Shown piece by piece: positions 2,070 through 55,453 of a stretch of 64,000 nucleotides of DNA. The first letter of the stretch is position 1. Each line of letters opens with the position of its first letter. The stretch is from a virus. Lineage: Duplodnaviria > Caudoviricetes. The stretch lies in IMG/VR virus record IMGVR_UViG_3300043177_000122, positions 64,001-128,000 of that record; one strand, written 5' to 3'. The notes below the pieces were generated by a model. That model saw only the letters and a list, made by a program, of their open reading frames with translations, had not been told where the DNA came from and made no database searches. The position numbers and the translations under genes were made by a program.

Positions 2070-2531
2070 TGTGGCTTTTATTTCAAAGCAAGAACAGATG
2101 CAATTAAATCTTGAGCAACTAAAAGTTGTGGCTGTTTAACTGGTGATTTGATTTCATCTGGAAATAAACTATCAAATAATTTGGGAGCCATTAATTTAGT
2201 AAGAAGGCACTACAAACATAATGCAAAGAAAAGGGATTTAATTTTCAAGTTATCAGAAAAAGAATTTGAAAATTTCATATTTGGGAATTGTCATTATTGT
2301 GGGGCTGAGCCCAAATTAGTGAAATTTGCTAGTAGCTCTGAAAATAGAAGAGATAAAGAGATTATCTATAATGGTATAGATAGGATTAATAATTCTGTAG
2401 GATATGTATTGTCTAATTGTGTTACATGCTGTTCAATTTGTAATACAGCTAAATCTGATCTTTCATTTGAAGAATTTAATGATTGGATAAAAAGATTAGT
2501 GAGATATAATGGCCAACAAAAAAGTTTCTAA
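2070..2531 (+). pseudogene. HNH/EndoVII-like homing endonuclease, 5' part broken
   Basis: CHYC...GIDRINNSVGY..SNCVTCCSICN..K; upstream in-frame CGFYFKARTDAIKS*ATKSCGCL has TGA at 2112-2114; no intact start. Confidence 0.65.
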
Positions 2532-5015: not shown

Positions 5016-6266
5016 ATGACTCGCTATAAAATGGTTGCTAGGGATATCAATTCCAATCCCACACAATGGAGAACTTGGGTAGTTCAGGGACAGCCTGATT
5101 TTGACGGATATTATTATACCGGTTATAAATCAGGTCCTAACGCCTTTACGGAAGTACATGCTTATGCTATACCTGATACAGGCACTATAGCTGACTTTAA
5201 TCTTCCAGACCCTACTAATTGGGTAGCTACTACGGACCGTTTAAATTGGGATTTCCCAATTCGTAAGGTTTTGCCAGCTCCATTAGAGGATTCAGCTCTA
5301 GCTGTTCTTGATGGGTACATCTATATGTTTGGCGGTAAGATTACCGACAAGATTTATCGTGCTCATGTCAATAATCCTGCTGATTGGGAAGATACAGGTG
5401 CCGTATTACCCAATCCATTGTTTGGGTCCTCTTTGGCCATTGTGGATGGATACATCTATTTATTTGGAGGAAACAACGGAGTAGATGCTGTAAATGGCCT
5501 TGGTGCTATAGATAATATCTACTCTGCTCCGGTTAGTAATCCATTAGTTTGGACTAATCATGGCTCTTTATTACCACGTAGATTAGAATACTCTCATTTA
5601 GCAATGGATGGTTATCAACTCTATCTATTTGGTGGTAGAGAAATTAACTCAGCTACTAATCTTATTTTTACAGCCACCACTTCTAATCCTTTATCTTGGA
5701 CAATAACTGGCTCCACTTTACCATACAAAGTATATGGCGGAACTTTAGCTCAAATTAATAATAATTGGATGATATTTGGTGGTCTTCTTACTCCTGATTC
5801 CCCTACTAACACAATAATTACAGCGTCAGTTAATACTCCGTTATCTTGGACAACTACCGGATTACTACCATGGTCTACTGGATTCGGACAATTTGTTAAT
5901 ATTGGTGGTGATGGATATCTCATTGGACCAATGAATGGTGCAAATACCAATTTTACATCTATTCTGCGTTGTAATTTGAATAATCCAAATGCATGGGTTG
6001 ATCTTCAAGTTGTGGTGCGCGGTGTTGTCTCTCATTCACAGATAGCAATCATTGCAGATAGAGTATGGCTTTTTGGCGGATCAGGATTAACTGCAATTTT
6101 CGCATGTAACCAGATTACTAAATACAATATATTAGCGCCCAAAGCTATCAATTATGGAACCATTACACGTGTTACTGTGCCTAATACTGATAACATAAAT
6201 AGACCATATACTGCAACTGGTATGCCGTGGTGGAAAACTGATTATCCTTTTTATAATAGACCGTAA
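5016..6266 (+). CDS. Kelch-repeat beta-propeller protein
   Basis: Repeated YIY(M/L)FGG/LYLFGG/WLFGG units at about 50-aa spacing, with ..NPL.W motifs. Confidence 0.75.
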   Translation: MTRYKMVARDINSNPTQWRTWVVQGQPDFDGYYYTGYKSGPNAFTEVHAYAIPDTGTIADFNLPDPTNWVATTDRLNWDFPIRKVLPAPLEDSALAVLDGYIYMFGGKITDKIYRAHVNNPADWEDTGAVLPNPLFGSSLAIVDGYIYLFGGNNGVDAVNGLGAIDNIYSAPVSNPLVWTNHGSLLPRRLEYSHLAMDGYQLYLFGGREINSATNLIFTATTSNPLSWTITGSTLPYKVYGGTLAQINNNWMIFGGLLTPDSPTNTIITASVNTPLSWTTTGLLPWSTGFGQFVNIGGDGYLIGPMNGANTNFTSILRCNLNNPNAWVDLQVVVRGVVSHSQIAIIADRVWLFGGSGLTAIFACNQITKYNILAPKAINYGTITRVTVPNTDNINRPYTATGMPWWKTDYPFYNRP

Positions 6267-6285
6267 TTTAGTAAATAAAGCAGGG

Positions 6286-6313
6286 TTGACTTCCCTCTGA
6301 AAATGATTAGAAT
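6286..6313 (+). promoter_or_regulatory. sigma70-like promoter of the pth2-pheRS operon
   Basis: TTGACT-N16-TAGAAT. Confidence 0.65.
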
Positions 6314-6320
6314 TTGAATT

Positions 6321-6812
6321 ATGAAAGACTATGATACGCCAGAGGAGTGTGAAAAGAGAGCTTCTCAAGAAGATCCTATTGTTATGTACTTAATTGTTCA
6401 TGAAACATTGAATATGAGTACAGGTAAAACAGCAGCTCAATGCGCTCATGCATCTCAGATGTTAACGCTAGAGTACTTTGAAGCTAAAGATAAATCTCGT
6501 GAATTGCAAAAACAAATTCAAAAAACTACCGATCCTGATGAGTTGCTTGTAATGAAAAGTCTGTATGCCGATTATGGTCGCAAGTTATCTATTTTTGGTG
6601 AATGGATGGAAAACTCTTTCCGTAAAGTAGTGCTTCGAGCAGATGACAAAGAATGGGCAAAAATCAAGCAAGACTATGGCCAACATATGGTTATGGTGGT
6701 TGATGCTGGTTTGACAGAAATTCCCAGCGGCAGTGAGACGGTTATAGGTCTATGGCCTATGCGCAAAAGTCAGAGGCCAAAAACTGTTCAACACTTACAA
6801 GTCTTGAAATGA
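6321..6812 (+). CDS. pth2: Peptidyl-tRNA hydrolase, Pth2 (archaeal/eukaryotic-type) family
   Basis: GKTAAQCAHA, RKVVL, VDAGLTEI.SGSETVIG; catalytic K/D/T present. Confidence 0.85.
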   Translation: MKDYDTPEECEKRASQEDPIVMYLIVHETLNMSTGKTAAQCAHASQMLTLEYFEAKDKSRELQKQIQKTTDPDELLVMKSLYADYGRKLSIFGEWMENSFRKVVLRADDKEWAKIKQDYGQHMVMVVDAGLTEIPSGSETVIGLWPMRKSQRPKTVQHLQVLK

Positions 6813-7183
6813 TACATGGATTAGTGGTACAAGAGACACAAAATCGTGGCCTTGGTGTATTTGCCACAAAACCTTTTGAAAAGGGAGAACTCATTGAGTG
6901 CTGCCATGTTATTGTTGTACCACGCACAGAGATTATGATTGGCAATACCAGTTCAGTTATGAGACATTATGTAATTGATTGGGACGGTAAACTAGCTGTA
7001 CCAACTGGTTATGGTTGCTTTTATAATCATTCATATAAGCCCAATGCCATTCATTATAAGCATATAGATTTAAATCAAATTCATTTGCATGCTTTAAGAG
7101 ATATTCTTCCATTTGAAGAGATAACGTTCAATTATGGTGGATTTCCTGACTGCAATGAAACATTATGGTTTGAGGTTAAATGA
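6809..7183 (+). CDS. SET-domain lysine methyltransferase
   Basis: GLGVFAT..FEKGELI, YNHSYKPNA, ALRDI..EEITFNYG; ATGA overlap with pth2 stop. Confidence 0.85.
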   Translation: MIHGLVVQETQNRGLGVFATKPFEKGELIECCHVIVVPRTEIMIGNTSSVMRHYVIDWDGKLAVPTGYGCFYNHSYKPNAIHYKHIDLNQIHLHALRDILPFEEITFNYGGFPDCNETLWFEVK

Positions 7184-7204
7184 AATGTACATGTCCAGGC
7201 TGGT

Positions 7205-7789
7205 ATGGTACTAAGTATCCTTGGCCACTTAGCTTATGTTCAATCTGACGAAATTTCTTTGTTAATAACAAACTATCAAACATTGGATACTCAATCTTGG
7301 TTTGATAATAATCTTCAGAAGATGATAAGTGTGGCTGCTGGCGTTGCGTCTAGTACTTTTACTACCGAATCTTGGAGAATTTGGATGGATGAGGATACTC
7401 CAAGTTTAAAGAAAATAGTACCAGCAATTTTTGATGCTAGAGCTTTTGTCCTTCCAAAAGAAGATGTTGTCAACTATTTCTTATGGCGTCAGCAGGATGC
7501 TACTAGAAACTCTGTGCAAATGTTAGCCCGATCTCTGTATTCGCACAAAGAGTGCACTAATAAAAATAACTCTGAATTACAAGAGTTGATTTTCCAAAAG
7601 GGAATCAACTGAAATGACTGCCCAACGTCACAAAAGCGTGGACGCTGTATTGTTAAAAAGTATACCAAAAAGTCTACTTTGAATCCTAAAGTTCAACAAT
7701 ATGAAACGGCACTTCGTAGTGAGTGGGAGGTTGATAATGAGATTCCTATCTTTTCACAAGATAGAAACTATATCAATCAATATGTCTAA
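7205..7789 (+). pseudogene. Thg1-like (TLP) guanylyltransferase, N-terminus missing plus internal stop
   Basis: AYVQSDEISLL, FDARAF, YFLWRQQDATRNS, GIN*NDCP..KRG (TGA 7610-7612 where Trp is expected), continues to IPIFSQDRNYI; the RLDG motif is absent. Confidence 0.85.
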
Positions 7790-8117
7790 AAGTCAAATTA
7801 GAAAAGAACGCAAACGAAAACGTTTTAAACAAAAGAAAATAAACACTAAGCTAAAGAAGAAATTGTTTGGTCATCTGTTTATGGCGCCCTGTATTTATTG
7901 TAGGCGGGCCTTTTTATTATCTACATTAACAGTTGAACACATTACGCCATTATGCCTTGGTGGAACCAATGATCCATCTAATATTGCATTGGCATGCTTT
8001 CCTTGCAATAATGATAAGGGAAGAGAAGCTTGGTTCCAAAAACGTGAATTTAATAAGAAACACTATGAACAATATCACTCACAGTATCGAATTGAAAATT
8101 GGGAAAGGATTATATAG
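7782..8117 (+). CDS. HNH endonuclease
   Basis: CIYC...TVEHITPLCLGGTND.SNIALAC..CNNDKG. Confidence 0.8.
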   Translation: MSKSQIRKERKRKRFKQKKINTKLKKKLFGHLFMAPCIYCRRAFLLSTLTVEHITPLCLGGTNDPSNIALACFPCNNDKGREAWFQKREFNKKHYEQYHSQYRIENWERII

Positions 8118-9132
8118 GAACCCAGCACACCCTTTGTGTATTGTCAAAGAGATGGTTTTTGATTATTTTGAAGATTTATCACGAATCGAAATTGATAATC
8201 CATATGTGCCTATTGAATATAATTTCGATAGACTACGTGTACCTACCGATCATCCTTCAAGACGTCCAACTGATACCTACTACAAGGATGATAAGAACTG
8301 CCTCCGCACCCATATGACATGTTATTTATATCCATTTGGGAAATCAGATACTGGTCAAAGTAAGCTTAAGTATATTACATGTGGTGACGTCTATCGAAAA
8401 GATACTATTGATGCTACACATTATCCAGTGTTCCATCAGATGGATGCATTTTGTATGGTTCCAGATGATGTAGATGTAAGGCAAGATTTGCGCAATAGGT
8501 TGCAAGGTTTAGTAAAACATCTTTTTGGCGAAAGCACAGAATGTCAGTTCTTAGAAGATTCAGAATATGAAGAGGTTTACTTTCCTTTTACAATTGATTC
8601 TGTCGAAGTGAGTGTTTCTTTACCGGATGAGCATGGCAAAATTAAACAACTAGAAATTTTAGGAGCAGGAACTGTCCATCCCGACATTATGGCCGATCTT
8701 GGTTTGCCAGGTAAAAAAGCGTGGGCTTTTGGTTTAGGTCTAGAAAGATTAGCTATGGTTATGTTCGGCATTCCTGATATTAGATTATTTTGGAGCACAG
8801 ATAAAAGATTTTTAAGTCAATTTACGCCGGGCAAGATTACCAAATTTAATCCTTACTCAAAATATGAGTCATGTTATAAAGACATTTCATTTTTCTTAAG
8901 TGAAAAATTTTCTTATAACGACCTCTGCTCTATCGCTAGAGATGAAGATGAGAACAACATAATTGAATCTATTTCATTGATTGATGAGTTCCAGGTTAAA
9001 GGCCGAACTTCGCAGTGTTATAGAATTACATATCGCTCCATGGATGGTACGTTACGAAACTCTGATGTAAATACAATTCAAAAATCAATCAGAGACCGAA
9101 TTATCCAAGAGCTAGGAGTAGAAGTAAGATGA
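8065..9132 (+). CDS. pheS: Single-chain (mitochondrial-type) phenylalanyl-tRNA synthetase
   Basis: HPSRR..DTYY, LRTHMT, GDVYRKD.ID.THYPVFHQMD, FPFT, LEILGAG, WAFGLGLERLAM...IPDIRLFW fused to an FDX-ACB domain (SKY....KDISF, SQCYRITYRS...TL). Confidence 0.9.
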   Translation: MNNITHSIELKIGKGLYRNPAHPLCIVKEMVFDYFEDLSRIEIDNPYVPIEYNFDRLRVPTDHPSRRPTDTYYKDDKNCLRTHMTCYLYPFGKSDTGQSKLKYITCGDVYRKDTIDATHYPVFHQMDAFCMVPDDVDVRQDLRNRLQGLVKHLFGESTECQFLEDSEYEEVYFPFTIDSVEVSVSLPDEHGKIKQLEILGAGTVHPDIMADLGLPGKKAWAFGLGLERLAMVMFGIPDIRLFWSTDKRFLSQFTPGKITKFNPYSKYESCYKDISFFLSEKFSYNDLCSIARDEDENNIIESISLIDEFQVKGRTSQCYRITYRSMDGTLRNSDVNTIQKSIRDRIIQELGVEVR

Positions 9133-10866: not shown

Positions 10867-10950
10867 ATAGCTAGGCTGATGGGAGAGGTGTGTCTTAGGC
10901 ACGCCCTTTTAACTGGACCGCACTTACCCAATCGTAATAAGGTGAAAAAA

Positions 10951-12825
10951 ATGACTCCGAATCGTATCAGAGAGTTAGAGAACAAGATTTTCAAAGCTCG
11001 TACGGACTACTACAACCATCAACCTACTGTTTCTGACAAGGTGTATGATGCTTGGGTAGATGAACTACGCACTCTTGACCCTTCTAACAAGGCCGTAACT
11101 GCCATTGGTGCTCCAGTTGTTCCTTCTGAATGGACTAAAGCTAAGCATCAGATTCCAATGGGATCCTTGGATAAAGTTAATACTCCTGCCGAATTCTCTA
11201 AATGGGTAGAGGATACGTATCCTGATGGTAAGCTTCTTATCACCGAAAAGCTTGATGGACTCTCCATTGAGGTTATTTATGAGAATGGGCATCTTGTTCA
11301 GGCCATTACTCGTGGTGATGGTGACATTGGTGAAGATATTACTGTCAACGTTGTCAAGATGGGAGGCGTTCACTCTCACCTAAAACACAATTTTACCGGC
11401 TCTTTACGTGGTGAAATCATTATGAAGAAGAGCATTCATAAGCAATTCTTTGCTGATAAAGCTAATCCGCGTAATGCAGCATCAGGCACTAGTAAGCGTT
11501 TGGATGGTGTGGGTGTCGATAAGCTCAACATTTTGTTCTATCAAGCACTTGGTGATGTTGATTTTGGTGTGGAGCAAGCTCAATTCGCCTGGCTTGTTAA
11601 CCAAGGGCTAGATACGCCTAACTGGTGGGTAGTTAAAACTGCCGATCAAGTCAATAAATTCTGGCGTGATTACCAAGATACCAAGCGTGACAACCTGGAT
11701 TATGATATTGACGGATTAGTTATTCGTGTTGATGATATGGCCAAGCAGATGGCTCTAGGCGAGAAAGACCTCCGTCCCAAAGGAGCAATTGCGTTCAAGT
11801 TTGAAAATGAAGCTCGCGAATCTATCATTCGAGACATTGTTTGGCAGGTTGGTAACTCTGGTCGCCTAACTCCTGTTGCCACTGTTGATCCTGTTCAATT
11901 AGTTGGCGCTACCATTACACGAGCCAGCCTCTATAATTACTCTTATATTGAAGAACTGAGTCTTGATATTGGCGCCACTGTTCTTGTGGCGCGAGCTAAT
12001 GACGTTATTCCTCGTATTGAAGAGACTATCAAGAAGACAGGTACTGTGGCTAAGCCGCCCAGCAAATGCCCTGAGTGTGATGGTAAGACTGTTTTCGATG
12101 GGGAGAATCTCGTCTGTACTAATACTGAGTATTGTCGAGCACAGATCATTGGTCGTATTAAAAATTGGATTAAAGAACTTAACCTTCTTGAGTGGGGCGA
12201 TACTCTTGTTGAGAAGTTAGTTGAGGCAAAGAAGGTCAAGAACATTGCTGACTTGTACAAATTGAAAGTGGATGATATCGCTAATCTTGACCGTCTTGGT
12301 GAAAAGACAGCAAAGAAGGTGCTAGATATTCTTTGGGCCAACAAGAAAGTGCCTTTAGAAGTTTTTCTAGGTGCATTATCCATTCCTCTTATTGGGCAGG
12401 CTTCGATTAAATTAATTATGAAAGCCGGCTGTGATACTTTAGAAAAGTTTGGGCAATTAAATGCCGATGCTTTTGAACAAGTTCCTGGTCTTGGTCCGAT
12501 TAAAGCAAAATCACTGGCTGACGGTCTTAAAAATAACCAACAACTCATTCTTGATTTATTAAAAAATGGCATTGAAATCAAAGAGGCAATTGATGGTAAA
12601 TTAACCGGCAAAAGCTTTGCCATTACTGGGACTCTTTCTATCAAGCGTGCAGAAGTTGAAAAGATGATTGTAGATAATGGAGGAGAGGTTAAAAGTAGCG
12701 TTGGAAAGGGATTATCTTATCTAATCATTGCCGATCCTCAATCTGCCAGTAGCAAGGCCCAGGCGGCACGCAAATTGGGAACAATTCTTATCGACGAAAA
12801 GCAGTTTTTGGAATTGATTAAGTAA
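10951..12825 (+). CDS. ligA: NAD+-dependent DNA ligase
   Basis: EKLDG, RGE, NPRNAASG, DGLV, AIAFKF, C4 Zn finger, HhH repeats, C-terminal BRCT (FAITGTL). Confidence 0.96.
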   Translation: MTPNRIRELENKIFKARTDYYNHQPTVSDKVYDAWVDELRTLDPSNKAVTAIGAPVVPSEWTKAKHQIPMGSLDKVNTPAEFSKWVEDTYPDGKLLITEKLDGLSIEVIYENGHLVQAITRGDGDIGEDITVNVVKMGGVHSHLKHNFTGSLRGEIIMKKSIHKQFFADKANPRNAASGTSKRLDGVGVDKLNILFYQALGDVDFGVEQAQFAWLVNQGLDTPNWWVVKTADQVNKFWRDYQDTKRDNLDYDIDGLVIRVDDMAKQMALGEKDLRPKGAIAFKFENEARESIIRDIVWQVGNSGRLTPVATVDPVQLVGATITRASLYNYSYIEELSLDIGATVLVARANDVIPRIEETIKKTGTVAKPPSKCPECDGKTVFDGENLVCTNTEYCRAQIIGRIKNWIKELNLLEWGDTLVEKLVEAKKVKNIADLYKLKVDDIANLDRLGEKTAKKVLDILWANKKVPLEVFLGALSIPLIGQASIKLIMKAGCDTLEKFGQLNADAFEQVPGLGPIKAKSLADGLKNNQQLILDLLKNGIEIKEAIDGKLTGKSFAITGTLSIKRAEVEKMIVDNGGEVKSSVGKGLSYLIIADPQSASSKAQAARKLGTILIDEKQFLELIK

Positions 12826-15064: not shown

Positions 15065-15867
15065 AGGATAAATATCTTTGGTTTACAGATACACATCTCG
15101 ATAAGGTTCCACCTTGGGATCTTATTAGACTACTTTTGCATATCATAAAAGAGGATCCAAAAGGCATCTTTTTAACAGGAGATATCTCTAATGGACTTCT
15201 AACTCCATGGCATTTAAGAATGATTGCCACTTTTGTAAAGTGCCCAATCTATTTTGTGTTAGGAAATCATGATTATCATTTCTCTTCAATCGAGAAAACT
15301 CATCAAAAAGTTCGCGCCCTTTGTAAAGAATTTCCCAATCTTATTTGGATGACAGAGGCGGGCGTTGTTCATCTCAATGAAGAAGTGGCCTTAATTGGAA
15401 CTGAAGGCTGGTATGATGCCAATAATGGTAAACCAGAGTATCTTCAGTTCACTTTTGATTGGATGTTAACGGAAGATTTTCGTAAACTATCTGATATGAA
15501 AGCAAGAATTGAGGCTTGGCGAGCAATTGCTGATCAAAGTACCTACTATTTGGTTGATAAAATTGAAAAAGCCATCGAACAAGGCTATAAGAATATCTAT
15601 GTTCTAACACATTTCCCGCCTTGGAAAGAGGCAACTCGTGATGTTGGAACGGTTTTTGAAAAATTTTGGATGCCATATAATGTGAATGTACGCCTTGGTG
15701 TAGCCTTAGAAGAGGTCATGGTTAACCATAAAAAGAAACACATCACAGTATTGGCAGGCCACACTCACACTGATTGCTGGATTCACGTGTCTCGTAACAT
15801 TGAGTGTAAAGTAAGTAAAGCAAAGTACTATGTTGAAATTCGTAACGATGAGCACATTTTTATTTAG
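15061..15867 (+). CDS. Calcineurin-like metallophosphoesterase
   Basis: TDTHLD, TGDIS, LGNHD, THFPP, AGHTH. Confidence 0.8.
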   Translation: MKDKYLWFTDTHLDKVPPWDLIRLLLHIIKEDPKGIFLTGDISNGLLTPWHLRMIATFVKCPIYFVLGNHDYHFSSIEKTHQKVRALCKEFPNLIWMTEAGVVHLNEEVALIGTEGWYDANNGKPEYLQFTFDWMLTEDFRKLSDMKARIEAWRAIADQSTYYLVDKIEKAIEQGYKNIYVLTHFPPWKEATRDVGTVFEKFWMPYNVNVRLGVALEEVMVNHKKKHITVLAGHTHTDCWIHVSRNIECKVSKAKYYVEIRNDEHIFI

Positions 15868-16579
15868 CCTTCTAATTTCATGTCAACAAGAGGTAACTCC
15901 TGCCCCAGTTATACCATCTGAAGATATTGGAGCTATTTATATTCCACCGCCCACCCCACCCGTTGTACAACCAACTATTTGTTCTGAAGATATGGTATTC
16001 GTTTCTAATGGCAAATTTTGTATTGATAAATACGAATGGCCTAATAAGAAAAATACATTGCCAGATTTTGCAATGACGGCTTTTGAAGCAGAAAAATTAT
16101 GTGAAAGTATTAAAAAACGTTTATGTACTCATACTGAATGGCTTAATGCGTGTCTTGGAAAAGATAGCTTACGTTATGGGTATGGTAATTTTTGGCAAAA
16201 AGATGCCTGTAATGACAATACTAACACAAAATATATTCCTGTTAACTGGGGTAAAATGAATGAAGGTCGAGATGCCTGGAAATCATATGCGAAAACTCTA
16301 TATAAAGGAAAACCAAGCGGCTCAATGGAACAATGTTTTGTTAGCGAGGCCAATGATAGAGTTTATGATATGATTGGTAATGTCAGAGAGTGGGTTCGCG
16401 ATCCTGCAGGATATGGTGGATATGCTTTTGAATCTTCTTTTTGGCATGGAACTATGCAAGGTCCTCAAGGTTGTGGTTTTGTAGTCCGCTCTCATGCTCC
16501 TGAATTTGCTTCTTATGAAGTTGGAACACGTTGCTGTAAAGAGACAAACAATGTTAAAGATAATCACCAGCCACAATAA
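15848..16579 (+). CDS. Lipoprotein with formylglycine-generating-enzyme (FGE/SUMF1)-like domain
   Basis: Lipobox LISC; FCIDKYE, KRLCT..EW..AC, VYDMIGNVREWV, GTRCC. Confidence 0.7.
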   Translation: MSTFLFSLLISCQQEVTPAPVIPSEDIGAIYIPPPTPPVVQPTICSEDMVFVSNGKFCIDKYEWPNKKNTLPDFAMTAFEAEKLCESIKKRLCTHTEWLNACLGKDSLRYGYGNFWQKDACNDNTNTKYIPVNWGKMNEGRDAWKSYAKTLYKGKPSGSMEQCFVSEANDRVYDMIGNVREWVRDPAGYGGYAFESSFWHGTMQGPQGCGFVVRSHAPEFASYEVGTRCCKETNNVKDNHQPQ

Positions 16580-17567: not shown

Positions 17568-19064
17568 ATGAGTTTACCTGTCATTAAGGACCAATCCGTT
17601 ATTGATCGTATTAAAGTTGTAGAGTCTGTCAAGGGATGGACTTTAAACTTTACTGACATTGTAAATAACAACAACAAGTTCTATAATCTTGAAGTTGTGA
17701 AATCGTCAGATAATAGTTTCTATCTGTATACTGTGTATGGAAGAGTTGGAGCTAGCGGTGCTAAAGAGTATCGCGCTTGTTCTTCTCTTGCTCAGGCAGA
17801 AAAAGAAGCTGAAAGCATTATCAAATCCAAGAACAAAAAGGGATATATTGAAGTTAAACTTGCTAAAGCAGATGTTGGGTCTGAACAAGGTAAAGAGAAA
17901 GTGGATATTTCTGTTACCGTTGAGTCTTTGAAAAAGGCTGGCGTTCAAGTAAAAGAGGAGCCGCAAGTTGCAAGCAAATTGCACCCCGAGGTTCAAGATC
18001 TAGTTCGTACTTGGTTCGGTGTTACACAAGAGTTCGTCGAGTTGAACTTGGATACTAAGAAGTGCCCGCTTGGTCAATTATCTCTTGATCAGATTGATAA
18101 AGCCAAACAGATTCTTGGTGAAGCAACCAAGATTGTTAATCTCAAGAAACCAGATGTTGATGAGCTTAACAGTTTGACTAGCCAATACTACTCTAACATT
18201 CCACACGTACTCCCACATAGAATTAATGCCGATCTTCTGCGCTTTGATGATATGGCAAAGATTACTAAAGCACAAGATATTCTTGATGTCTTTGCAGATG
18301 CTAAAAATGTTCAAGCAGTTATTTCCAAGAAAAGCGCTGTAGATTCACAGTACGCAACCTTAAACGCTGGACTTGAGTATGTAGAACCTACCGATCCAAC
18401 TTGGAAATGGCTTGAGGCAATGGTTCATGAAACCCGCGCTTCAAATCACTCTGGTTTAGGTAAGATTAAAGTTCATAAAATCTTCAAACTTGCTCGTAAT
18501 GATGAGCAAAAACATTTTCTTGAGACGGCTGGTAAGATTGCCAAAGAATGTGGAAATTGGAATCCCTCTCCAATCTACTCTAACTTGGTTAAGAGGCGCC
18601 CTGATGTTCCGAAGGAGTTACAAGAGCTTTATGCTAAAGCTAACATCCTTCCAGGTTGGCACGGCACTCGTAGAGCCAATATGATTGGTATTACTACTAA
18701 AGGGTTGTTGATTCGCCCATCTGGTGTTATCCATGCGGGGTCTATGTATGGTGATGGTATTTATTGGGCCGTTCATAGCACTAAGTCTATTAATTATTGT
18801 GATGTCAAAGGCTCTTACTGGGCTCAGGGTGCTAATAAAACCGCTTATCTCTTCTTAGGAGACGTAGCCTTCGGTAATCAAAAAATGGCTGGCGGATCCT
18901 ACATGTATACCAAGAAGAACATTGCTCCAAACCATTCGGTGTGGGCCAAGTCTGGTGGTTGCTCAGGTCTATACAACGATGAGCTGATTACATATACTGC
19001 ATCTGGTCATGGCCAACAGCATGTACTTCGTTATATCATCGAATTTGAAACGCAGGCTCGCTAA
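17568..19064 (+). CDS. Poly(ADP-ribose) polymerase-like protein: WGR + helical regulatory + ART domains
   Basis: NNKFYNLEV..YGRVG (WGR); CPLGQLS, YYSNIPH (regulatory); WHGTR..N, GSMYGDGIYWA...KSINY, LYNDELITY, LRYIIEF (H-Y-E triad). Confidence 0.9.
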   Translation: MSLPVIKDQSVIDRIKVVESVKGWTLNFTDIVNNNNKFYNLEVVKSSDNSFYLYTVYGRVGASGAKEYRACSSLAQAEKEAESIIKSKNKKGYIEVKLAKADVGSEQGKEKVDISVTVESLKKAGVQVKEEPQVASKLHPEVQDLVRTWFGVTQEFVELNLDTKKCPLGQLSLDQIDKAKQILGEATKIVNLKKPDVDELNSLTSQYYSNIPHVLPHRINADLLRFDDMAKITKAQDILDVFADAKNVQAVISKKSAVDSQYATLNAGLEYVEPTDPTWKWLEAMVHETRASNHSGLGKIKVHKIFKLARNDEQKHFLETAGKIAKECGNWNPSPIYSNLVKRRPDVPKELQELYAKANILPGWHGTRRANMIGITTKGLLIRPSGVIHAGSMYGDGIYWAVHSTKSINYCDVKGSYWAQGANKTAYLFLGDVAFGNQKMAGGSYMYTKKNIAPNHSVWAKSGGCSGLYNDELITYTASGHGQQHVLRYIIEFETQAR

Positions 19065-19535
19065 ATGAATATTTTTGTGTTAGATACAAATGTAAAACTA
19101 GCCGCCCAGGCTCATGTTGACAAGCATTGCGTCAAAATGATTTTAGAAACAACGCAGCTACTTAATAATGCGTTGATTGTTGGATCCCCTGGTTATCAAC
19201 CGGTGTATAAACAAACACACAAAAATCATCCATGTAGTATTTGGACAACTGAGTCTGTTGATAATTTTAATTGGCTAAATAATCTTGGGCTAGCTCTTTG
19301 TGAAGAATATACGTTTAGATACAGCAAAACACATAAATGTCAGCCAATCCTAGAGCAATTTTCTTCTCTTATCGGCACATTAACTTTGCCCAAAATTGGC
19401 ATGACTCAATTTCAACTTTGTATGCCAGACCAATACAAAGTTGATGATCCTGTAGAATCATATCGTAATTACTATCGTGGTGATAAGGCATACATTGCAA
19501 AGTGGTCTAAACGCGAAAAACCTACTTGGTGGTAA
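19065..19535 (+). CDS. Pyrimidine-dimer DNA glycosylase (DenV/Pyr_excise)-like protein
   Basis: MNIFVLD...AA..H.DKH.VKMILE..QLL, YK.TH.NHPC..W, CMPD.YK..DPV.SYR.YY. Confidence 0.65.
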   Translation: MNIFVLDTNVKLAAQAHVDKHCVKMILETTQLLNNALIVGSPGYQPVYKQTHKNHPCSIWTTESVDNFNWLNNLGLALCEEYTFRYSKTHKCQPILEQFSSLIGTLTLPKIGMTQFQLCMPDQYKVDDPVESYRNYYRGDKAYIAKWSKREKPTWW

Positions 19536-19559
19536 AATATATTACGTTGAATATCAAGT

Positions 19560-19783
19560 TTATAGAATATGATTCCAAGTAATTTTTCTAACGGCTCGTG
19601 AAATTGCTGACTCGCTCACATTATTATCAAAACCATATTTTCTAATGCTTTGATAAAGAGGTTTTTGTTTAGTTTTGTAAAAGCTTCATACTTATGACGA
19701 CTCCATCATCTTTTAAGATTATTGGTTTGCCCAACATAAAGCTTTGAATTAATATTATTGCGAATAATATAGATGTAATACAT
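19560..19783 (-). pseudogene. GIY-YIG homing endonuclease remnant
   Basis: MYYIYIIRNNINSKLYVGQTNNLKR*WSRH (TGA 19708-19706), frameshift to PLYQSIRKYGFDN, then a jump to the C-terminal VSESAISRAVRKITWNHI. Confidence 0.75.
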
Positions 19784-19804
19784 GCCTACTCCTATATTAC
19801 ATTA

Positions 19805-20317
19805 TTGATAGGGTGTGGTGGTGCAGGTGATGTTTTGATTGAAATAATTACAGGCGATTTTTTGGAAGCCAAAGAAAAATATATTGTACACCAGACTAAC
19901 TGTATCTCTACTAATGGGGCAGCCGGGATTGCGAAGGATATTTTCGATAAATATCCTTATGCAGACTGTTACGTATCTCGCACCGAACCAAGTAAGCCCG
20001 GTACAATTGATATCCGTGGCAACGGATTAGATCAAAGATTGATTGTTAATCTTTACGGTCAGGTTTATCCTGGGCGATGCAGATACCCACTTTCAAGTTT
20101 AGATGGACTGGTAGCTCGTGAGAAATACTTTTACCACGGGTTACTACGTCTGGCCAAGATTGAGGGGCTGGAAAGTATAGCATTGCCGTGGAGGGTGGGG
20201 TGTGGGATCGCTGGTGGGAACTGGGAACATTATCTTGGAACAATTAATAATTTCGCTCAATATGTTAAGGAAAAGGGCGTTGATGTTCGCATCTATCGTC
20301 GTTCAGGAGACGAATAA
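19805..20317 (+). CDS. Macrodomain (ADP-ribose hydrolase)
   Basis: ITGDFLEA, IVHQTNC, GIAKDIF..YP, IVNLYGQ, IALPWRVGCGIAGGNW. Confidence 0.82.
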   Translation: MIGCGGAGDVLIEIITGDFLEAKEKYIVHQTNCISTNGAAGIAKDIFDKYPYADCYVSRTEPSKPGTIDIRGNGLDQRLIVNLYGQVYPGRCRYPLSSLDGLVAREKYFYHGLLRLAKIEGLESIALPWRVGCGIAGGNWEHYLGTINNFAQYVKEKGVDVRIYRRSGDE

Positions 20318-20666
20318 TGTCTGATGAAAAGAAAAAGTCTTATCTAGACTATGATTTCAAAAATCAAGAAGCTCCATATCAAGCGGCCAAGACAAATATT
20401 CAATCTGAGATCGATGAGATTCACAAGGCCACTAAAGCTAATGGTACTCGTCTTCTTGAACAAAAAGTTACTATGCGCCCGGATTGGGATCTCAGATTTT
20501 GTTTAAATCTTTGATGACAGGCAGAAAATATCGTATGTTCATTTCTGATTTTCATGACATGATGCTTACAAAAAAGATGCAAGATAATGTTATTGAAGGC
20601 GAATTTACCTTTGTTAAAAAGGGCAGAGTGCAGGGATTTAGAATGATCCTGCCGCCCGCACCTTGA
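20317..20666 (+). other. Two overlapping partial ORFs, probable deletion junction
   Basis: MSDEKKK... switches frame near 20480 to GSQILFKSLMTGRKYRMFISDF...GEFTFVKKG; the second part has no RBS. Confidence 0.4.
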
Positions 20667-21164: not shown

Positions 21165-21970
21165 ATGCAGCGCAATATAATTCTGTATCGAGGCATTGAC
21201 TTCGAAAAGGAAGAGTTGAGCGAAGCACACCAATTCTTTGAATGTACTAGACGCCGCCCAGATATTCGAAAGGACGATCTAGTTATTGGCAGGTATTCGC
21301 TTTTACCTTTCTATTTGGAACGGGCCAAAGACATTCAGTATGTAGGTGCAAAGCTGATTAACGATTATCAGCAGCATCGCTACATTGCTGACCTACAGAA
21401 CTATGTTGTTGATCTTTAAGAGTTGACTCCACGTATTTGGACGAGTCCTGCTGACTTGCCAGATAAAGGTCAATTCGTCCTAAAAAAGGCGAGACTAATT
21501 CTCGTAAGTCTAATTGGAAGCGAGATATGTTTGCGCCCGACAAAAAAGCTGCAATTGAGGTCTATTCTAGATTAATGGACGATAGTTTAATCTGACAGCA
21601 GAATATTTACATCCGCCGGTATGAACCTATGGTAACATACCTAGAAGGAGTTAATGGTATTCCGATTACCAAGGAGTTTAGATTTTTTATTTCCTATGGA
21701 CAAATTCTGAGTAGTGGTTACTATTGGGCTAACTATATTGATCAGTTGCCTGAAGTCCCATCTCCTGATGAAGTTCCTCGTGAATTTTTGCAAGAAGTTA
21801 TTGAGCGTGTTGGTAATCAATCTAACTTCTATACCATTGATGTAGGGCAATCAGTTTCTGGTAAATGGTTTGTAGTAGAATTGAATGATGGGCAACAAGC
21901 TGGGCTTTCATGCAATGATCCATTTACGCTATATAAGAATCTAGATAAAGCTATCAGAAATAAAAATTAA
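21165..21970 (+). pseudogene. ATP-grasp (R2K/DUF4343-like) protein with three lesions
   Basis: TAA 21417-21419, frameshift in A6 21482-21487 (LK/GETNSRK), TGA 21593-21595; C-terminus EFRFF, YTIDVG, VVELNDGQQAGL. Confidence 0.75.
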
Positions 21971-25469: not shown

Positions 25470-25555
25470 GCCGAAGTGGTGGAATGGCAGACACAGAAGT
25501 CTCAAAAACTTCCGGGCGCAAGCCCATGTGGGTTCGACTCCCACCGTTGGCACCA
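25470..25555 (+). tRNA. tRNA-Leu(CAA)
   Basis: GAAGT-CT-CAA-AA-ACTTC arm, long V arm, GTTCGA, CCA; A6:G67 mismatch. Confidence 0.93.
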
Positions 25556-25585
25556 ATTCATTTCTAATTTTGATTAAATAATATC

Positions 25586-26047
25586 ATGAATCTAAAGAAT
25601 TTGTTGACCTTGACAATTCGCACCATGGATTTTAACTTGGTTGCGCAACAGCCAGAGCTTTTAGCAAAATTACGGAAACTTACACTAGATCCCTCTTCTG
25701 GAATGAATCATGAGTTGGATCGAATGTTAGAAGATGTAAAAACCCGTTCTGTTAATTGTACAGTTATTTTGGCTTATCGATTTAGTACATTAGTAGGTTG
25801 GAGCATTCTTTCTAAGGAAAATACCACCTACCATTTCTCGCGTGCTCCTGATGGATTTAATGCCGAACATGGTGTTATGTTTCAAGTCTTCGTAGACCCA
25901 GAGTACCGGCGCCAAGGTATTGCAACGGAACTTTATAAAAAGGCTCAGGCACTAGCAAAAACGGAATTGATCTATGTTTGCCCATGGGATACAAGAAGTC
26001 GTTTTTTCTATGAAAAATTCCCTGATGTCAAAACTAAATGGATGTAA
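25586..26047 (+). CDS. GNAT acetyltransferase
   Basis: VFVDPEYRRQGIATEL acetyl-CoA motif. Confidence 0.8.
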   Translation: MNLKNLLTLTIRTMDFNLVAQQPELLAKLRKLTLDPSSGMNHELDRMLEDVKTRSVNCTVILAYRFSTLVGWSILSKENTTYHFSRAPDGFNAEHGVMFQVFVDPEYRRQGIATELYKKAQALAKTELIYVCPWDTRSRFFYEKFPDVKTKWM

Positions 26048-26082
26048 TATCTAGTAATAATAGGTTATATACAGTACACGAT

Positions 26083-26166
26083 GCGGATATGGTGGAACGG
26101 CAGACACAGCAGTCTTAGAAGCTGCCGCCGAAAGGCGTGAGAGTTCAAGTCTCTCTATCCGCACCA
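26083..26166 (+). tRNA. tRNA-Leu(TAG)
   Basis: GCAGT-CT-TAG-AA-GCTGC, long V arm, CCA. Confidence 0.95.
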
Positions 26167-26195
26167 AAGTAAGATGAAGTATTCGAAAGTATTAC

Positions 26196-26282
26196 GTTCA
26201 TGTGGTGGAATGGCAGACACACCAGTCTCAGAAGCTGGCGTCCGTAAGGACATTGAGGGTTCGACTCCCTCCAGGAACACCA
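26196..26282 (+). tRNA. tRNA-Leu(CAG)
   Basis: CCAGT-CT-CAG-AA-GCTGG, long V arm, CCA; A5:G68 mismatch. Confidence 0.93.
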
Positions 26283-26285
26283 AAT

Positions 26286-26371
26286 GCGGTTGTGTCGTAA
26301 TGGCAGCCGAGCTAGAATGAGAGTCTAGTGCCCGAAAGGGCGTGTGGGTTCGAGTCCCACCAACCGCACCA
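26286..26371 (+). tRNA. tRNA-Leu(GAG)
   Basis: CTAGA-AT-GAG-AG-TCTAG (atypical A32), long V arm, CCA. Confidence 0.85.
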
Positions 26372-26440
26372 GTGATTAAATATTCTAAAGAGTTATTAGA
26401 AACTGCATCTCAAGCAGATGCTACTTAATCGTGAGAAGAT

Positions 26441-26836
26441 TTAAGAATATTTCTTAAGTAGTGAGTCAGTAACTTCAACACAAGCCTTCTTGGATTTCTT
26501 TTCAGATTTTCCAATACTTGGATACTTAGAATGAACTTTACGGCTGACTAAGTCCTGCAAACCTTTGAGACTTCCTGAGTACCAGGGTGGAGCAGAACTA
26601 TACTGATGGACGCGGGCCAAAGCATTACGTGCTTGATCTTCGTCATTAATTGGGAAATGGTCCTTCTTATCCTTAGCAGACTCAGCGGGCACACAAACGG
26701 TGCCTCTATTACGCACCTTAGCTTTAGGATCAAGTTTCTTCTTGTCCTTCTTCTTAGCTTCAGTCATTAAAGAATTGATAGCTGTTTTTTCAAAAGCAAT
26801 TGCTTGCTCTAAAACCTGTTCGACGTTATTTATCAT
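26441..26836 (-). CDS. Hypothetical basic protein (HFPI.D...ARNALAR, DUF6582-like)
   Basis: Lys-rich; N-terminal VEQVLEQAIAFEKTA. Confidence 0.55.
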   Translation of the reverse strand: MINNVEQVLEQAIAFEKTAINSLMTEAKKKDKKKLDPKAKVRNRGTVCVPAESAKDKKDHFPINDEDQARNALARVHQYSSAPPWYSGSLKGLQDLVSRKVHSKYPSIGKSEKKSKKACVEVTDSLLKKYS

Positions 26837-27614
26837 TGTGCTTCCCCTTCTTTTCTTGGCGGCGTTTGGTTCTAGAAGGAGATTTGAGTTTTAACTCTTT
26901 CTTCCATTCTGGATATGAACGCCCAAACACAGCTCTATCTTCTCCTTGATCGCGAATAATAACATATCCACCATCTGTCATGCTAAATGGCTTGGAAAGT
27001 TTACCTAACCAATCAAATTTAGCACCAGCAGGAGGGGCAGGATCAAACCAAGCAGGAAGGACAAAATTAGAAACTGTGACTGTAGCTCCATCAACCTCTA
27101 CATCATAGTAATCGCTCTCAACAGGGTCTGCCACTTCTAAAGCGTAACTTAATCCTTCTTTCCAATTATCTGCCCAATAGTTAGCCTGTGGGTCCATCAT
27201 AATTTCTAATACCTCATGTGACAATACGGTAGAAATAGGAAGATTGTGCTTTTGGGTAACTTTCACAAAGACGCGGCCATATGGTAATCCATCAGGCCCA
27301 TCAGAATGATAGCCAAGAGCACCCGCAATATCAGCATCATCGAACACTAAAACTTTGAACGCGCCAAGCTCAGTAACAGCTTCGGAGTCTCTATAAACAA
27401 CTTTAGGTGGTTTTAAATCCCAAGTTGGTGCAGCGTGCTCACGAGCCTGTTTCGCAACACCTAAAGTCATGAGTTTTACATCTTCATTTGAAATAATTGA
27501 AGATTTATTGATGACTGCAATAAGCATATTTCCATCTTCACCAAGATTTACAGGTGGTGAAGTAACGGTATTATTTGAGCCAGTAAGCCAATTCCAAAAC
27601 TTTTTAAAGCACAT
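26826..27614 (-). CDS. Zincin-like putative metallopeptidase
   Basis: GALGYH, SHEVLEIMMDP, LEVADPVE, VSNFVLPAWFDP. Confidence 0.6.
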   Translation of the reverse strand: MCFKKFWNWLTGSNNTVTSPPVNLGEDGNMLIAVINKSSIISNEDVKLMTLGVAKQAREHAAPTWDLKPPKVVYRDSEAVTELGAFKVLVFDDADIAGALGYHSDGPDGLPYGRVFVKVTQKHNLPISTVLSHEVLEIMMDPQANYWADNWKEGLSYALEVADPVESDYYDVEVDGATVTVSNFVLPAWFDPAPPAGAKFDWLGKLSKPFSMTDGGYVIIRDQGEDRAVFGRSYPEWKKELKLKSPSRTKRRQEKKGKHNDK

Positions 27615-27645
27615 AGTTTAATCCAATTTTTTTATTTGGTAGGTG

Positions 27646-27673
27646 TTGACGAAATAAAGGGGAGGGTTATATT
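27646..27673 (+). promoter_or_regulatory. sigma70-like promoter upstream of the His/Glu tRNAs
   Basis: TTGACG-N16-TATATT. Confidence 0.65.
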
Positions 27674-27712
27674 ACTTACTACTAATAATTAGGCAATAAT
27701 ATTGCTACGTAT

Positions 27713-27789
27713 GGTGGGCGTTTACATCTGGTGATGTTGCGAGATTGTGACCCTCGCTAGGCTCGGTTCGAATCCGGCCGTTCACCCCA
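27713..27789 (+). tRNA. tRNA-His(GTG) #1, G-1 encoded
   Basis: Loop TT-GTG-AC; G-1:C73; CCA. Confidence 0.9.
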
Positions 27790-27799
27790 ACACTTTTAT

Positions 27800-27876
27800 G
27801 GTGATCGTATCCGAGTGGTTTCAGGAGACTGGCTGTGACCCAGTTCACGCGGGTTCAATTCCCGTCGATCACCCCA
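27800..27876 (+). tRNA. tRNA-His(GTG) #2, G-1 encoded
   Basis: ACTGG-CT-GTG-AC-CCAGT; G-1:C73; CCA. Confidence 0.94.
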
Positions 27877-27880
27877 AGAT

Positions 27881-27956
27881 GGTCCCATCATCTAAAGGTT
27901 CAGGATGAGAGATTTTCACTCTCTTCATAGGGGTTCGAATCCCCTTGGGATCACCA
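27881..27956 (+). tRNA. tRNA-Glu(TTC)
   Basis: AGAGA-TT-TTC-AC-TCTCT; CCA. Confidence 0.93.
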
Positions 27957-27957
27957 A

Positions 27958-28380
27958 ATGAAAATTTGCAGTAAATGCAAAATTGATAAAGAATTAGAAG
28001 AGTTTAATAGAAATTCGACTAAACAAGATGGATCACAGACAATCTGCCGAGATTGTAGTAATAAAAAATCAGCACAGCATTACGCTGTAAATAAACAAGA
28101 TTATAGAGATAGTAAAAGAAAATCTGTCCAAACATTACGTGAATATGTTCTTAGTTATTTATTAGAACATCCTTGTATTGATTGCTCAGAATATGATCCA
28201 GTATGTTTAGATTTTGATCATGTATCTGGTGATAAAGTTAGAAATATTGCAGATATGATTCATGCAGGAGTATCATTAGATAATATCAAACTAGAAATTG
28301 AAAAATGTGTAGTTTGTTGTGCTAATTGCCATCGAAAGAAGACTGCGAAAGATTTTGATTGGTTTAAGAATCGAAAATGA
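27958..28380 (+). CDS. HNH-type homing endonuclease inside the tRNA array
   Basis: CSKC...CRDC, HPCIDC, LDFDHV, EIEKC.V.CANCHR..T. Confidence 0.8.
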   Translation: MKICSKCKIDKELEEFNRNSTKQDGSQTICRDCSNKKSAQHYAVNKQDYRDSKRKSVQTLREYVLSYLLEHPCIDCSEYDPVCLDFDHVSGDKVRNIADMIHAGVSLDNIKLEIEKCVVCCANCHRKKTAKDFDWFKNRK

Positions 28381-28559
28381 AAGTTCTAATTGCTTGTTTA
28401 TTTCTATCGGGTTGTTTTCTCACAAATCATCCACAATACTGCCACACTGATGGCGATTGTTTAAACGGCCAATGGTGTCCAACAATTAGGGCGCCATCTC
28501 AACCACCTGATATTTGTAAGGGAAAAGCAATTATTAATCACAATATTTTAGCTGACTAA
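28377..28559 (+). CDS. Small Cys-rich lipoprotein
   Basis: LSGC lipobox; CHTDGDCLNGQWC. Confidence 0.5.
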   Translation: MKVLIACLFLSGCFLTNHPQYCHTDGDCLNGQWCPTIRAPSQPPDICKGKAIINHNILAD

Positions 28560-28588
28560 CTGTCAATAAAGTGATATAAAATACGTAC

Positions 28589-28664
28589 GGCCCATTCGTC
28601 TAATGGTTTAGGACGGCAGCCTCTCACGTTGCTAATACGGGTTCGAACCCCGTATGGGTCGCCA
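28589..28664 (+). tRNA. tRNA-Glu(CTC)
   Basis: GCAGC-CT-CTC-AC-GTTGC; CCA. Confidence 0.94.
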
Positions 28665-28670
28665 GCATAC

Positions 28671-28745
28671 GCCTCTGTAGTCTAAGGGATAGGCACTCGC
28701 CTTCTAAGCGATTTAATGTAGGTTCGAATCCTACCAGAGGTGCCA
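28671..28745 (+). tRNA. tRNA-Arg(TCT) #1
   Basis: TCGC-CT-TCT-AA-GCGA; CCA. Confidence 0.92.
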
Positions 28746-28758
28746 AGTAAGTGTTTAT

Positions 28759-28834
28759 GCGTCTGTAATTCAATGGATAGAAATTTTGCCTTCTAAGCAA
28801 AAAGTTTGGGGTTCGAGTCCCTCCAGACGTGCCA
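28759..28834 (+). tRNA. tRNA-Arg(TCT) #2
   Basis: TTTGC-CT-TCT-AA-GCAAA; CCA. Confidence 0.92.
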
Positions 28835-28838
28835 AAAT

Positions 28839-28922
28839 GTTACTGTAACCTAATGGAGAGGTATCGGTCTACGAAACCGAAGCGCAAGCTAAATGCAGGT
28901 TCGAATCCTGCCAGTGACGCCA
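28839..28922 (+). tRNA. tRNA-Arg(ACG) #1 with long variable arm
   Basis: TCGGT-CT-ACG-AA-ACCGA; 14-nt V region AGC-GCAA-GCT-AAAT; CCA. Confidence 0.9.
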
Positions 28923-28925
28923 AAT

Positions 28926-29001
28926 GGGTCTGTAGCTCAATGGATAGAGCACTCCGCTACGAACGGAACGGTTGAAGGTTCAACTCCTTTCAGACCCGCC
29001 A
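28926..29001 (+). tRNA. tRNA-Arg(ACG) #2
   Basis: TCCG-CT-ACG-AA-CGGA; CCA. Confidence 0.93.
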
Positions 29002-29006
29002 ATTAT

Positions 29007-29082
29007 GTCTCCATAACTCAATGGATAGAGTACTTCGCTTCGAACGAAGAAGTTGTAGGTTCAAGTCCTACTGGAGATGCCA
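29007..29082 (+). tRNA. tRNA-Arg(TCG)
   Basis: TTCG-CT-TCG-AA-CGAA; CCA. Confidence 0.93.
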
Positions 29083-55239: not shown

Positions 55240-55452
55240 ATGAATAAAATGTTTACAGACAATGGATTTATTTCTGAAGAAGGTAAAAAGGTTTTACAAC
55301 CACTACATGATGGCTTAATGGAAGTTGTTCGTGCTCCCGAAGTGCAAGCTATGTCTGTACAAGAGCTGCGAACTTTACAGGCTAACTTGGCTAAACTGAT
55401 TGGCGAAGTTATGTCTGGAGAGATTTTTATTCGTAATAAGCAAGGAAAGTAA
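55240..55452 (+). CDS. Hypothetical protein
   Basis: AGGA RBS. Confidence 0.5.
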   Translation: MNKMFTDNGFISEEGKKVLQPLHDGLMEVVRAPEVQAMSVQELRTLQANLAKLIGEVMSGEIFIRNKQGK

Positions 55453-55453
55453 C

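Follow-up and report, generated by a model that had tools for sequence, protein, structure and literature searches.

The stretch of phage DNA analyzed here (hereafter the window) is 64,000 nt long and corresponds to bases 64001–128000 of a single 358,993-bp IMG/VR virus record with a CheckV completeness of ~83%. It encodes a PARP protein composed of a WGR domain, a helical regulatory domain (HD; PARP_reg in Pfam), and an ADP-ribosyltransferase (ART) catalytic domain, followed by a glycosylase-like gene of the Pyr_excise family and by a macrodomain gene that we refer to as macro1 (Table 1). The source phage belongs to a widespread clade of uncultured phages with genomes of 430–500 kb. When the locus was compared with 50,697 phage records by megablast, nothing matched, which leaves the clade without a cultured or deposited close relative. 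An earlier reading of the window (the original prediction) had proposed a phage-encoded break-sensing ADP-ribosylation cycle used for repair, host-protein modification, NAD+ draining, or reversal of DarT defence.

Table 1. Features of the window and of the remainder of the source genome considered in this analysis.
Feature	Coordinates	Strand	Description and evidence
UvrD-type helicase	2509–4998	+	Split by an intein; Pfam Intein_splicing over aa 284–587
NAD+-dependent DNA ligase LigA	10879–12825	+	C-terminal BRCT; Pfam DNA_ligase_aden E 7e-42, OB, HHH, BRCT E 3e-10
PARP	17568–19064	+	498 aa, WGR-HD-ART, PARP2/3-like core; Pfam WGR, PARP_reg, PARP
PARP, WGR domain	17640–17858	+	aa 25–97; Pfam E 2e-18; motif Y57-G58-R59-V60-G61
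PARP, HD (PARP_reg)	17973–18347	+	aa 136–260; Pfam E 4e-18; aligns to PARP1 HD
PARP, ART catalytic domain	18411–19061	+	aa 282–498; Pfam PARP catalytic aa 282–461, E 7.5e-19
Pyr_excise-family gene (T4 endonuclease V/DenV-like)	19065–19535	+	156 aa; Pfam PF03013
GIY-YIG homing-endonuclease remnant	19560–19801	-	~85 codons, decayed; in-frame TGA 19706–19708, frameshift, truncated
macro1	19835–20317	+	160-aa macrodomain, predicted ALC1-like class, SCO6735/BT1257-like; H19, N22, Q76, G127-G128
NADAR remnant	20317–20514	+	65-aa open reading frame; tblastn with intact NADAR of relatives, E 1e-11
T4 Rnl1-type RNA ligase	55400–56698	+	Pfam RNA_lig_T4_1 E 2e-13; 3.5 kb from macro2
Metallophosphoesterase-HNH fusion	58982–60193	+	Translationally coupled to macro2; Pfam Metallophos E 8e-16; PHROG NinI-like phosphatase plus HNH
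macro2	60190–60705	+	171-aa macrodomain-like protein; start overlaps stop of phosphoesterase gene
ARH/DraG-family ADP-ribosylglycohydrolase	genome C1:41445–42281		~39 kb upstream of PARP, ~22.5 kb before window; E 8e-68 (Pfam 1e-66)

The complete WGR-HD-ART architecture with a PARP3-like layout that had been proposed for the PARP is borne out by matches to the Pfam WGR, PARP_reg, and PARP models and by structure comparison with Foldseek, in which structures of PARP1 and PARP2 on DNA breaks are the top matches of the AlphaFold2 (AF2) model (E ~1e-23, probability 1.0). The model is moderate overall (mean predicted local distance difference test [pLDDT] 68.7), with values of ~80–88 in the WGR region and an all-helical HD, parts of which are modeled at low confidence. 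The closest solved structures in a phmmer search of PDB are WGR-CAT fragments of PARP1 and PARP2 (E = 1.5e-26 and 3.5e-23), the alignment to PARP1 spanning the WHG, GIY, and NYC segments of the phage protein, and the PARP also matches phrog_23333 (E = 2e-33). Pfam identified neither zinc fingers nor a BRCT domain in the PARP, in which 24 aa precede the WGR domain; therefore, the layout is that of PARP2/3 or of bacterial PARPs and not that of PARP1.

Conservation was analyzed in two alignments of 12 and 18 sequences with 29–87% identity, which contain clade members (66–87%) and five distant phage PARPs (~29%). The columns invariant between clade members and distant PARPs are H365-G366, G397, Y399, K406-S407, Y410, N470, and E472. 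They include the predicted H-Y-E triad, read from the motifs WHG, GIYWA, and NDEL, with H365 (codon 18660–18662), Y399 (18762–18764), and E472 (18981–18983) unchanged down to PARPs that are 29% identical, as well as the Ser and Tyr of the nicotinamide site (S407 and Y410), which are invariant in both alignments. The WGR motif has an invariant G58-R59-V60-G61, preceded by Y, W, or F at the aromatic position. HMMER did not align the final ART strand to PARP1. At E472 the sequences follow the pattern E-x-I-[TV]-[YF], which reads EYIVY in two of the distant phage PARPs; in PARP1, EYIVY is the strand whose first residue is the catalytic Glu, usually numbered E988. Because the pattern parallels this strand, E472 would be the catalytic Glu, placed after a one-residue insertion (D471).

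A homology search yielded 521 PARP matches, of which the top 120 are at least 70% identical and lie on contigs up to 496 kb, and identity within the clade is 66–97%. We conclude that the protein is a genuine PARP2/3-type ADP-ribosyltransferase and that it is probably active. The source genome encodes only one PARP. In the 486-kb relative L039, the PARP is called as two open reading frames (WGR plus HD, then ART) at 5717–7227, and it is an intact protein of 503 aa in a second assembly; the same relative has a second PARP paralogue ~8 kb downstream (15591–16504).

In its WGR-HD-ART order, H-Y-E triad, Ser/Tyr pair, and lack of zinc fingers, the window PARP is similar to human PARP2 and PARP3 and to bacterial WGR-PARPs such as those of Herpetosiphon aurantiacus and Clostridioides difficile CD160. 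It is only ~20–24% identical to the human enzymes and differs from these relatives in that its WGR motif has Y for W and in two clade-specific features: the acceptor loop is reduced to 8 residues, and an insert of ~40 aa (about aa 313–357), predicted to form three helices, separates H365 from the first ART strand. The same architecture and catalytic residues are found in annotated phage PARPs from XacN1 (BBA65562), Cellulophaga phage phi17:2 (gp031), and Klebsiella phage FBKp34 (gp111), whose large-phage context rich in NAD+/ADP-ribose enzymes is also common to the clade; unlike these proteins, to which it is 26–30% identical, the clade PARP is ~80–110 aa longer and fixed beside macro1, with an additional NADAR gene in relatives. 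Phage PARPs have been catalogued before, the XacN1 protein serving as an example in a comparative study (PMC7824862) and "PART (PARP)" being listed among the most frequent viral ARTs (PMC9503650), and a role as a DNA-damage sensor has been proposed for phage PARP in gut jumbo phages (PMC11662467). The clade PARP thus adds to a known, biochemically uncharacterised group.

Comparative work has also suggested for phage PARPs a mode of action similar to that of other phage ARTs (PMC7824862), and the window PARP is located among early-type, nonstructural genes, as could be the case for a host-takeover or anti-defence effector that either modifies host proteins without any need for DNA breaks, in the manner of T4 Alt/Mod or AcrIF11, or depletes NAD+. 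We regard this as improbable, given that the WGR domain and the HD, whose sole known role is DNA-dependent gating, are fully kept and conserved, and that the PARP is neither fused to nor near head or portal genes, unlike injected ARTs (PMC9503650). NAD+ draining, one of the four uses listed in the original prediction, is unlikely for a further reason: it would be self-harming to a phage whose own ligase needs NAD+ and in whose genome NAMPT, for NAD+ salvage, was not found.

The macrodomain predicted to follow the PARP and the glycosylase-like gene was confirmed by profile and structure comparisons, although Pfam alone made no call (E = 0.085). A profile built from 31 macro1 sequences matched, among solved structures, BT1257 (E = 3e-4), alphavirus nsP3 macrodomains, and DarG, and macro1 also matches phrog_335 (E = 1e-21). 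Its AF2 model has a pLDDT of 92.4 and matches macrodomains in Foldseek with a probability of 1.0, including VEEV nsP3 (E = 1e-9), Mycobacterium tuberculosis DarG (template modeling [TM] score 0.74), TARG1, and Poa1p. Homologues are named O-acetyl-ADP-ribose deacetylase by JGI. Since these homologues have a length of 159–161 aa, translation probably starts at the TTG at 19835, which is preceded by AGGTGA, and not at 19805.

Within macro1, H19, N22, and G127-G128 are invariant and Q76 is at least 90% conserved, and the protein contains an H-x-x-N motif and a G-C-G-x-A-G-G-x-W phosphate loop. The catalytic lysine of DarG (K80) and TARG1 (K84) has no counterpart, as the loop that follows strand 69–73 lacks an invariant Lys; instead, profile alignment to BT1257, in which H19 and N22 pair with the H and N of BT1257, together with the secondary structure of the AF2 model places Q76 at the lysine position. 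A single-sequence phmmer alignment of macro1 with DarG had put S87 at the K80 position, and this placement was rejected in favor of Q76 on the basis of the BT1257 profile alignment and the model. In its macro fold, H-x-x-N motif, Gln, and G-C-G-x-A-G-G loop, macro1 is similar to SCO6735 from Streptomyces coelicolor and to BT1257, and from PMC9411070 we infer that the Gln of BT1257 corresponds to Gln85 of SCO6735. On these sequence features we assign macro1 to the SCO6735/BT1257 type within the ALC1-like class; from SCO6735 and BT1257 it differs by the weak overall similarity and by an extra invariant Y-P-G...P-x-S-x-x-D-G loop after the Gln. As a single-domain phage macrodomain whose model is structurally close to DarG, it also appears similar to AdfM (PhiKZ gp104) and DarG2; however, the lysine of DarG (K80) and AdfM (K78) is absent from it. 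In SCO6735, Gln85 replaces the lysine, and the enzyme is active both on DNA, from which it takes off thymidine-linked ADP-ribose, and on proteins, protein-linked ADP-ribose being a substrate that SCO6735-type macrodomains hydrolyse, and the ALC1-like class, including the lysine-less SCO6735 type, reverses thymidine ADP-ribosylation (PMC9411070). Because this type acts on both substrates, homology alone cannot separate an eraser of the PARP product from an eraser of DarT2 damage.

The physical linkage of the two genes is strong within the clade. Among 20 PARP-anchored loci with downstream sequence, macro1 is encoded 0.1–2.4 kb downstream of the PARP in 19, and the most divergent macro1 homologues, used as anchors for four more loci, all have a PARP 0.8–2.3 kb upstream, giving linkage in 23 of the 24 clade loci despite insertions between both genes. 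Outside the clade, Klebsiella phage FBKp34, whose PARP is 29% identical to the window PARP, encodes a "putative phosphatase" (FBKp34_105) 2.4 kb upstream of its PARP that is a macro1 homologue by BLASTP (E = 2e-7) and hhalign (probability 94.7%), with NLYGQ and LD motifs common to both proteins. By homology, this pair provides the best independent support for a functional PARP-macro1 pair. At the level of whole genomes, all seven PARP-encoding phages tested contain a Macro-like match, five of them over the Pfam cut-off; the matches in FBKp34 (E = 1.4e-3) and phi17:2 (Pfam E = 5e-3, macro1 profile E = 1e-3) are weak and do not reach it. Given that Macro is present in 56% of jumbo phages (PMC9503650), this co-occurrence is no more than suggestive. 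Proteins of 154–166 aa encoded just downstream of distant PARPs (FBKp34_112, phi17:2 gp030, and those in L024 and L026) were considered as hidden macrodomains and rejected, as they show no relationship to macro1 or macro2 or among themselves.

Three features were not part of the original prediction, namely the Gln in place of Lys in the macro1 active site, a NADAR gene after macro1 in relatives, and an ARH gene elsewhere in the genome. A full-length NADAR gene is found 0–1.3 kb after macro1 in 19 of 24 relatives (Pfam NADAR E = 2e-35 for the L001 orthologue); in L006, L010, L015, L016, and L037/38 it overlaps macro1 or directly adjoins it. In the source genome, Pfam NADAR was not detected, and the remnant keeps only residues ~20–74 of the 143–147-aa protein, at 20329–20490. 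NADAR is also present in all five PARP-phage genomes tested. This arrangement points to the main alternative, in which macro1 and the NADAR of relatives form a counter-defence island, comparable with orphan antitoxins, against DarT2 (thymidine) and DarT1 (guanosine) marks, the PARP being a separate neighbour. Experiments have shown that phage AdfN (the NADAR protein of T4) counters DarTG1 (PMC11825919) and that the phage macrodomain AdfM counters DarTG2 (PMC13309987); moreover, the thymidine-directed activity of the ALC1-like class extends to the SCO6735 type (PMC9411070), and the macro1 family is widespread in phages without PARP. On the other hand, macro1 lacks the lysine that AdfM and DarG2 need, its assignment to the SCO6735 type rests on a profile alignment, the NADAR gene has decayed in the source genome while macro1 is intact beside the PARP, and chance is hard to invoke for the same macrodomain subfamily located 2.4 kb from the PARP of the unrelated FBKp34. 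We consider a counter-defence island with an unconnected PARP possible but not probable.

The reading that we favor, to which we give about an even chance of being correct, is that the PARP is a writer gated by DNA breaks and that its mark is reset by macro1. The WGR domain would bind phage DNA at nicks or ends that arise during replication or damage, DNA binding would release HD auto-inhibition, and the PARP would then consume NAD+ to modify acidic residues of its own chain and of proteins close by with ADP-ribose, thereby flagging the lesion to the phage's own nick-sealing machinery. Removal of the protein-proximal ADP-ribose would most likely be the role of macro1, which, with the adjacent NADAR in relatives, may also clear damage of the host DarT type. 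Purifying selection across more than 500 PARP homologues, the intact NAD+ site, and the LigA(BRCT)-PARP-macro1 neighbourhood argue for this reading, and bacterial WGR-PARPs are known to need DNA for activity (PMC8120803). It is not mutually exclusive with counter-defence, because SCO6735-type enzymes act on both substrates. Of the cycle originally predicted, the architecture and the linkage of writer and macrodomain stand, whereas the list of four functions is resolved by sequence only in part.

Several observations weigh against a PARP-macro1 cycle. In the relative L002 a PARP is present and macro1 is not nearby, and synteny in the clade is by itself weak evidence of function because the whole region, including LigA, a metallophosphoesterase gene, PARP, and macro1, is collinear and the adjacency is partly inherited. 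In most annotated PARP phages, unlike in the clade, the macrodomain is encoded far from the PARP. The distance is 10–200 kb in four other PARP phage lineages, and it is in this range in XacN1, Xoo-sp13, RAS14, phi17:2, LR756511, and LR756500. Macro1-like genes are found in 429 cultured-phage records and PARP in 16, showing that the family works without PARP. No match to the microbial PARG model (PF10021) was found in the 359-kb record, itself ~83% complete, and the literature searched contained no biochemical study of any phage PARP. Polymer synthesis is uncertain because the PARP model is moderate and the acceptor loop is much shorter than that of PARP1, and, with the short loop and no PARG found, the product may be either mono- or poly-ADP-ribose. 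The eukaryotic PARG model (PF05028) also had no match in the genome, a result that is uninformative as its control search matched nothing either. In bacterial PARP-PARG systems (PMC8120803) the partner is PARG, in contrast to the window PARP, whose partner would be an SCO6735-type macrodomain and whose genome encodes an ARH elsewhere. The other two huge PARP phages, LR756511 (where the gene is 4 kb from the PARP) and LR756500, also encode an ARH, whereas the five cultured PARP phages tested do not; the family occurs in ~5% of jumbo phages (PMC9503650).

The NAD+-dependent ligase and the UvrD helicase proposed upstream of the PARP were both recovered by Pfam. LigA is encoded 4.7 kb upstream of the PARP, and this position is kept in relatives; in Cellulophaga phage phi17:2, an ATP-dependent ligase is encoded 0.5 kb downstream of the PARP, independently of the linkage to LigA in the clade. 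Human PARP1–3 can modify phosphates at DNA ends, a modification that TARG1-class macrodomains reverse. By analogy, the window PARP might ADP-ribosylate terminal phosphates at DNA ends or nicks as a cap or mark, and macro1 might uncap them before ligation or packaging. The linkage to a DNA ligase and the existence of DNA-acting eraser classes (PMC9411070) are in line with such capping; however, protein auto-modification is the default PARP activity, and NADAR is specific for bases and not phosphates (PMC11125620). We consider capping highly improbable. A broader proposal is that the block of LigA(BRCT), PARP, SCO6735-type macrodomain, and NADAR constitutes a self-contained phage DNA-break signalling circuit in which the PARP would sense breaks and write the mark on itself or on DNA ends, the BRCT domain of LigA would read it and thereby be recruited, and macro1, NADAR, and ARH would erase this mark as well as DarT-type marks made by the host. 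Although we think it rather unlikely that such a complete circuit exists, it would, if true, be the equivalent in a bacterial virus of the PARP-XRCC1-Lig3 pathway of eukaryotes, which may even have evolved from it. We found no description of a PARP-macro-NADAR neighbourhood in the literature searched.

As a sequence observation, the phage PARP is confirmatory and not surprising. Phage PARPs are among the commoner viral ADP-ribosyltransferases in comparative surveys. The clade offers an abundant and well-conserved example in which the neighbouring macrodomain is fixed and mechanistically unusual (Gln for Lys), and with natural variants that lack macro1, lack NADAR, or have a second PARP. Break-dependent activity and the identity of the eraser, if shown, would tell what PARPs do in a prokaryotic setting and would bear on the proposed origin of eukaryotic PARPs from phage or bacterial conflict systems.

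A second macrodomain similar to DarG and TARG1 had been noted at 60190. The profile similarity holds: macro2 matches DarG (5m31, E = 5e-6), TARG1 (E = 2e-3), and phrog_335 (E = 3e-19), Pfam alone making no call (E = 0.065), and it has 383 homologues with 70–100% identity. N25 is kept in macro2, and an invariant I102 is aligned to DarG K80, so that the catalytic lysine is absent here as well. Paralogy of macro1 and macro2 was not detectable beyond the phosphate loop by BLASTP or hhalign (probability 22%). Macro2 is encoded 41 kb from the PARP and is not an obligatory part of the PARP system. Because it is coupled to a phosphoesterase-HNH gene and located near an Rnl1-type RNA ligase gene, we suggest from this context that macro2 probably belongs to RNA repair or ADP-ribose metabolite processing and not to the PARP cycle.

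The proposed order of PARP, DenV-like glycosylase, and macrodomain is correct in that the start of the Pyr_excise gene is the base right after the PARP stop; macro1, however, does not follow immediately but after a gap of 270 nt. The assignment of the glycosylase-like gene to its family is based on a PF03013 score of 27.4 bits compared with a gathering cut-off of 23 bits (E = 4.4e-6, profile positions 1–80 of 81 covered), a match to phrog_624 (E = 3e-55), and its ESM Atlas neighbours, 95 of 100 of which are in Pyr_excise clusters (90–94% Pyr_excise). A sequence search against PDB matched no solved endonuclease V and so gave no reliable residue alignment. In T4 endonuclease V the N-terminal amine nucleophile is that of Thr2 and the catalytic Glu is Glu23; a candidate Glu in the phage protein is E28 in the motif MILETTQ. 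Only 9 of 21 loci have the gene in the PARP-macro1 interval, homing endonucleases or a radical-SAM gene often being present instead, and PARP, glycosylase, and macrodomain are thus not a three-gene unit. The Pyr_excise gene is not an obligatory part of the PARP-macro1 system, and the PARP-macro1 interval is an insertion hot spot in the clade that has received LAGLIDADG, HNH, and GIY-YIG endonuclease genes, a radical-SAM gene, and the Pyr_excise gene. In the window, the 270-nt gap holds the decayed GIY-YIG gene, whose three-frame translations include MYYIYIIRNN..KLYVGQTNNLKR*WSRHKYEAF and KPLYQSIRKYGFDN, and in the relative L040 an intact GIY-YIG/NUMOD3 gene of 221 aa flanks macro1.

Nearly all genes in the window are encoded on one strand, and a scan for sigma-70 promoters and terminators around the genes did not exceed shuffled expectation. 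Downstream of the NADAR remnant, an R2K-clade ATP-grasp gene (21165–21970, plus strand) is seemingly broken, whereas its 275-aa orthologue in L040 is intact; it has an in-frame TAA at 21417–21419 in the window, a frame change near 21485, and one more in-frame stop. The window further contains 12 tRNA genes at 25470–29082; a gene for a single-chain phenylalanyl-tRNA synthetase with a C-terminal FDX-ACB anticodon-binding domain (7933–9132, plus strand), which is a mitochondrial-type layout; and a gene for a 416-aa Kelch-repeat beta-propeller protein (5016–6266, plus strand), which is unusual for a phage. The NCBI names of one macro1 homologue (P0132) and one macro2 homologue (P0331) are derived from a metagenome-assembled genome labelled Candidatus Saccharimonadales; the label probably reflects a phage contig binned with a bacterium and is a weak hint to the host at most.

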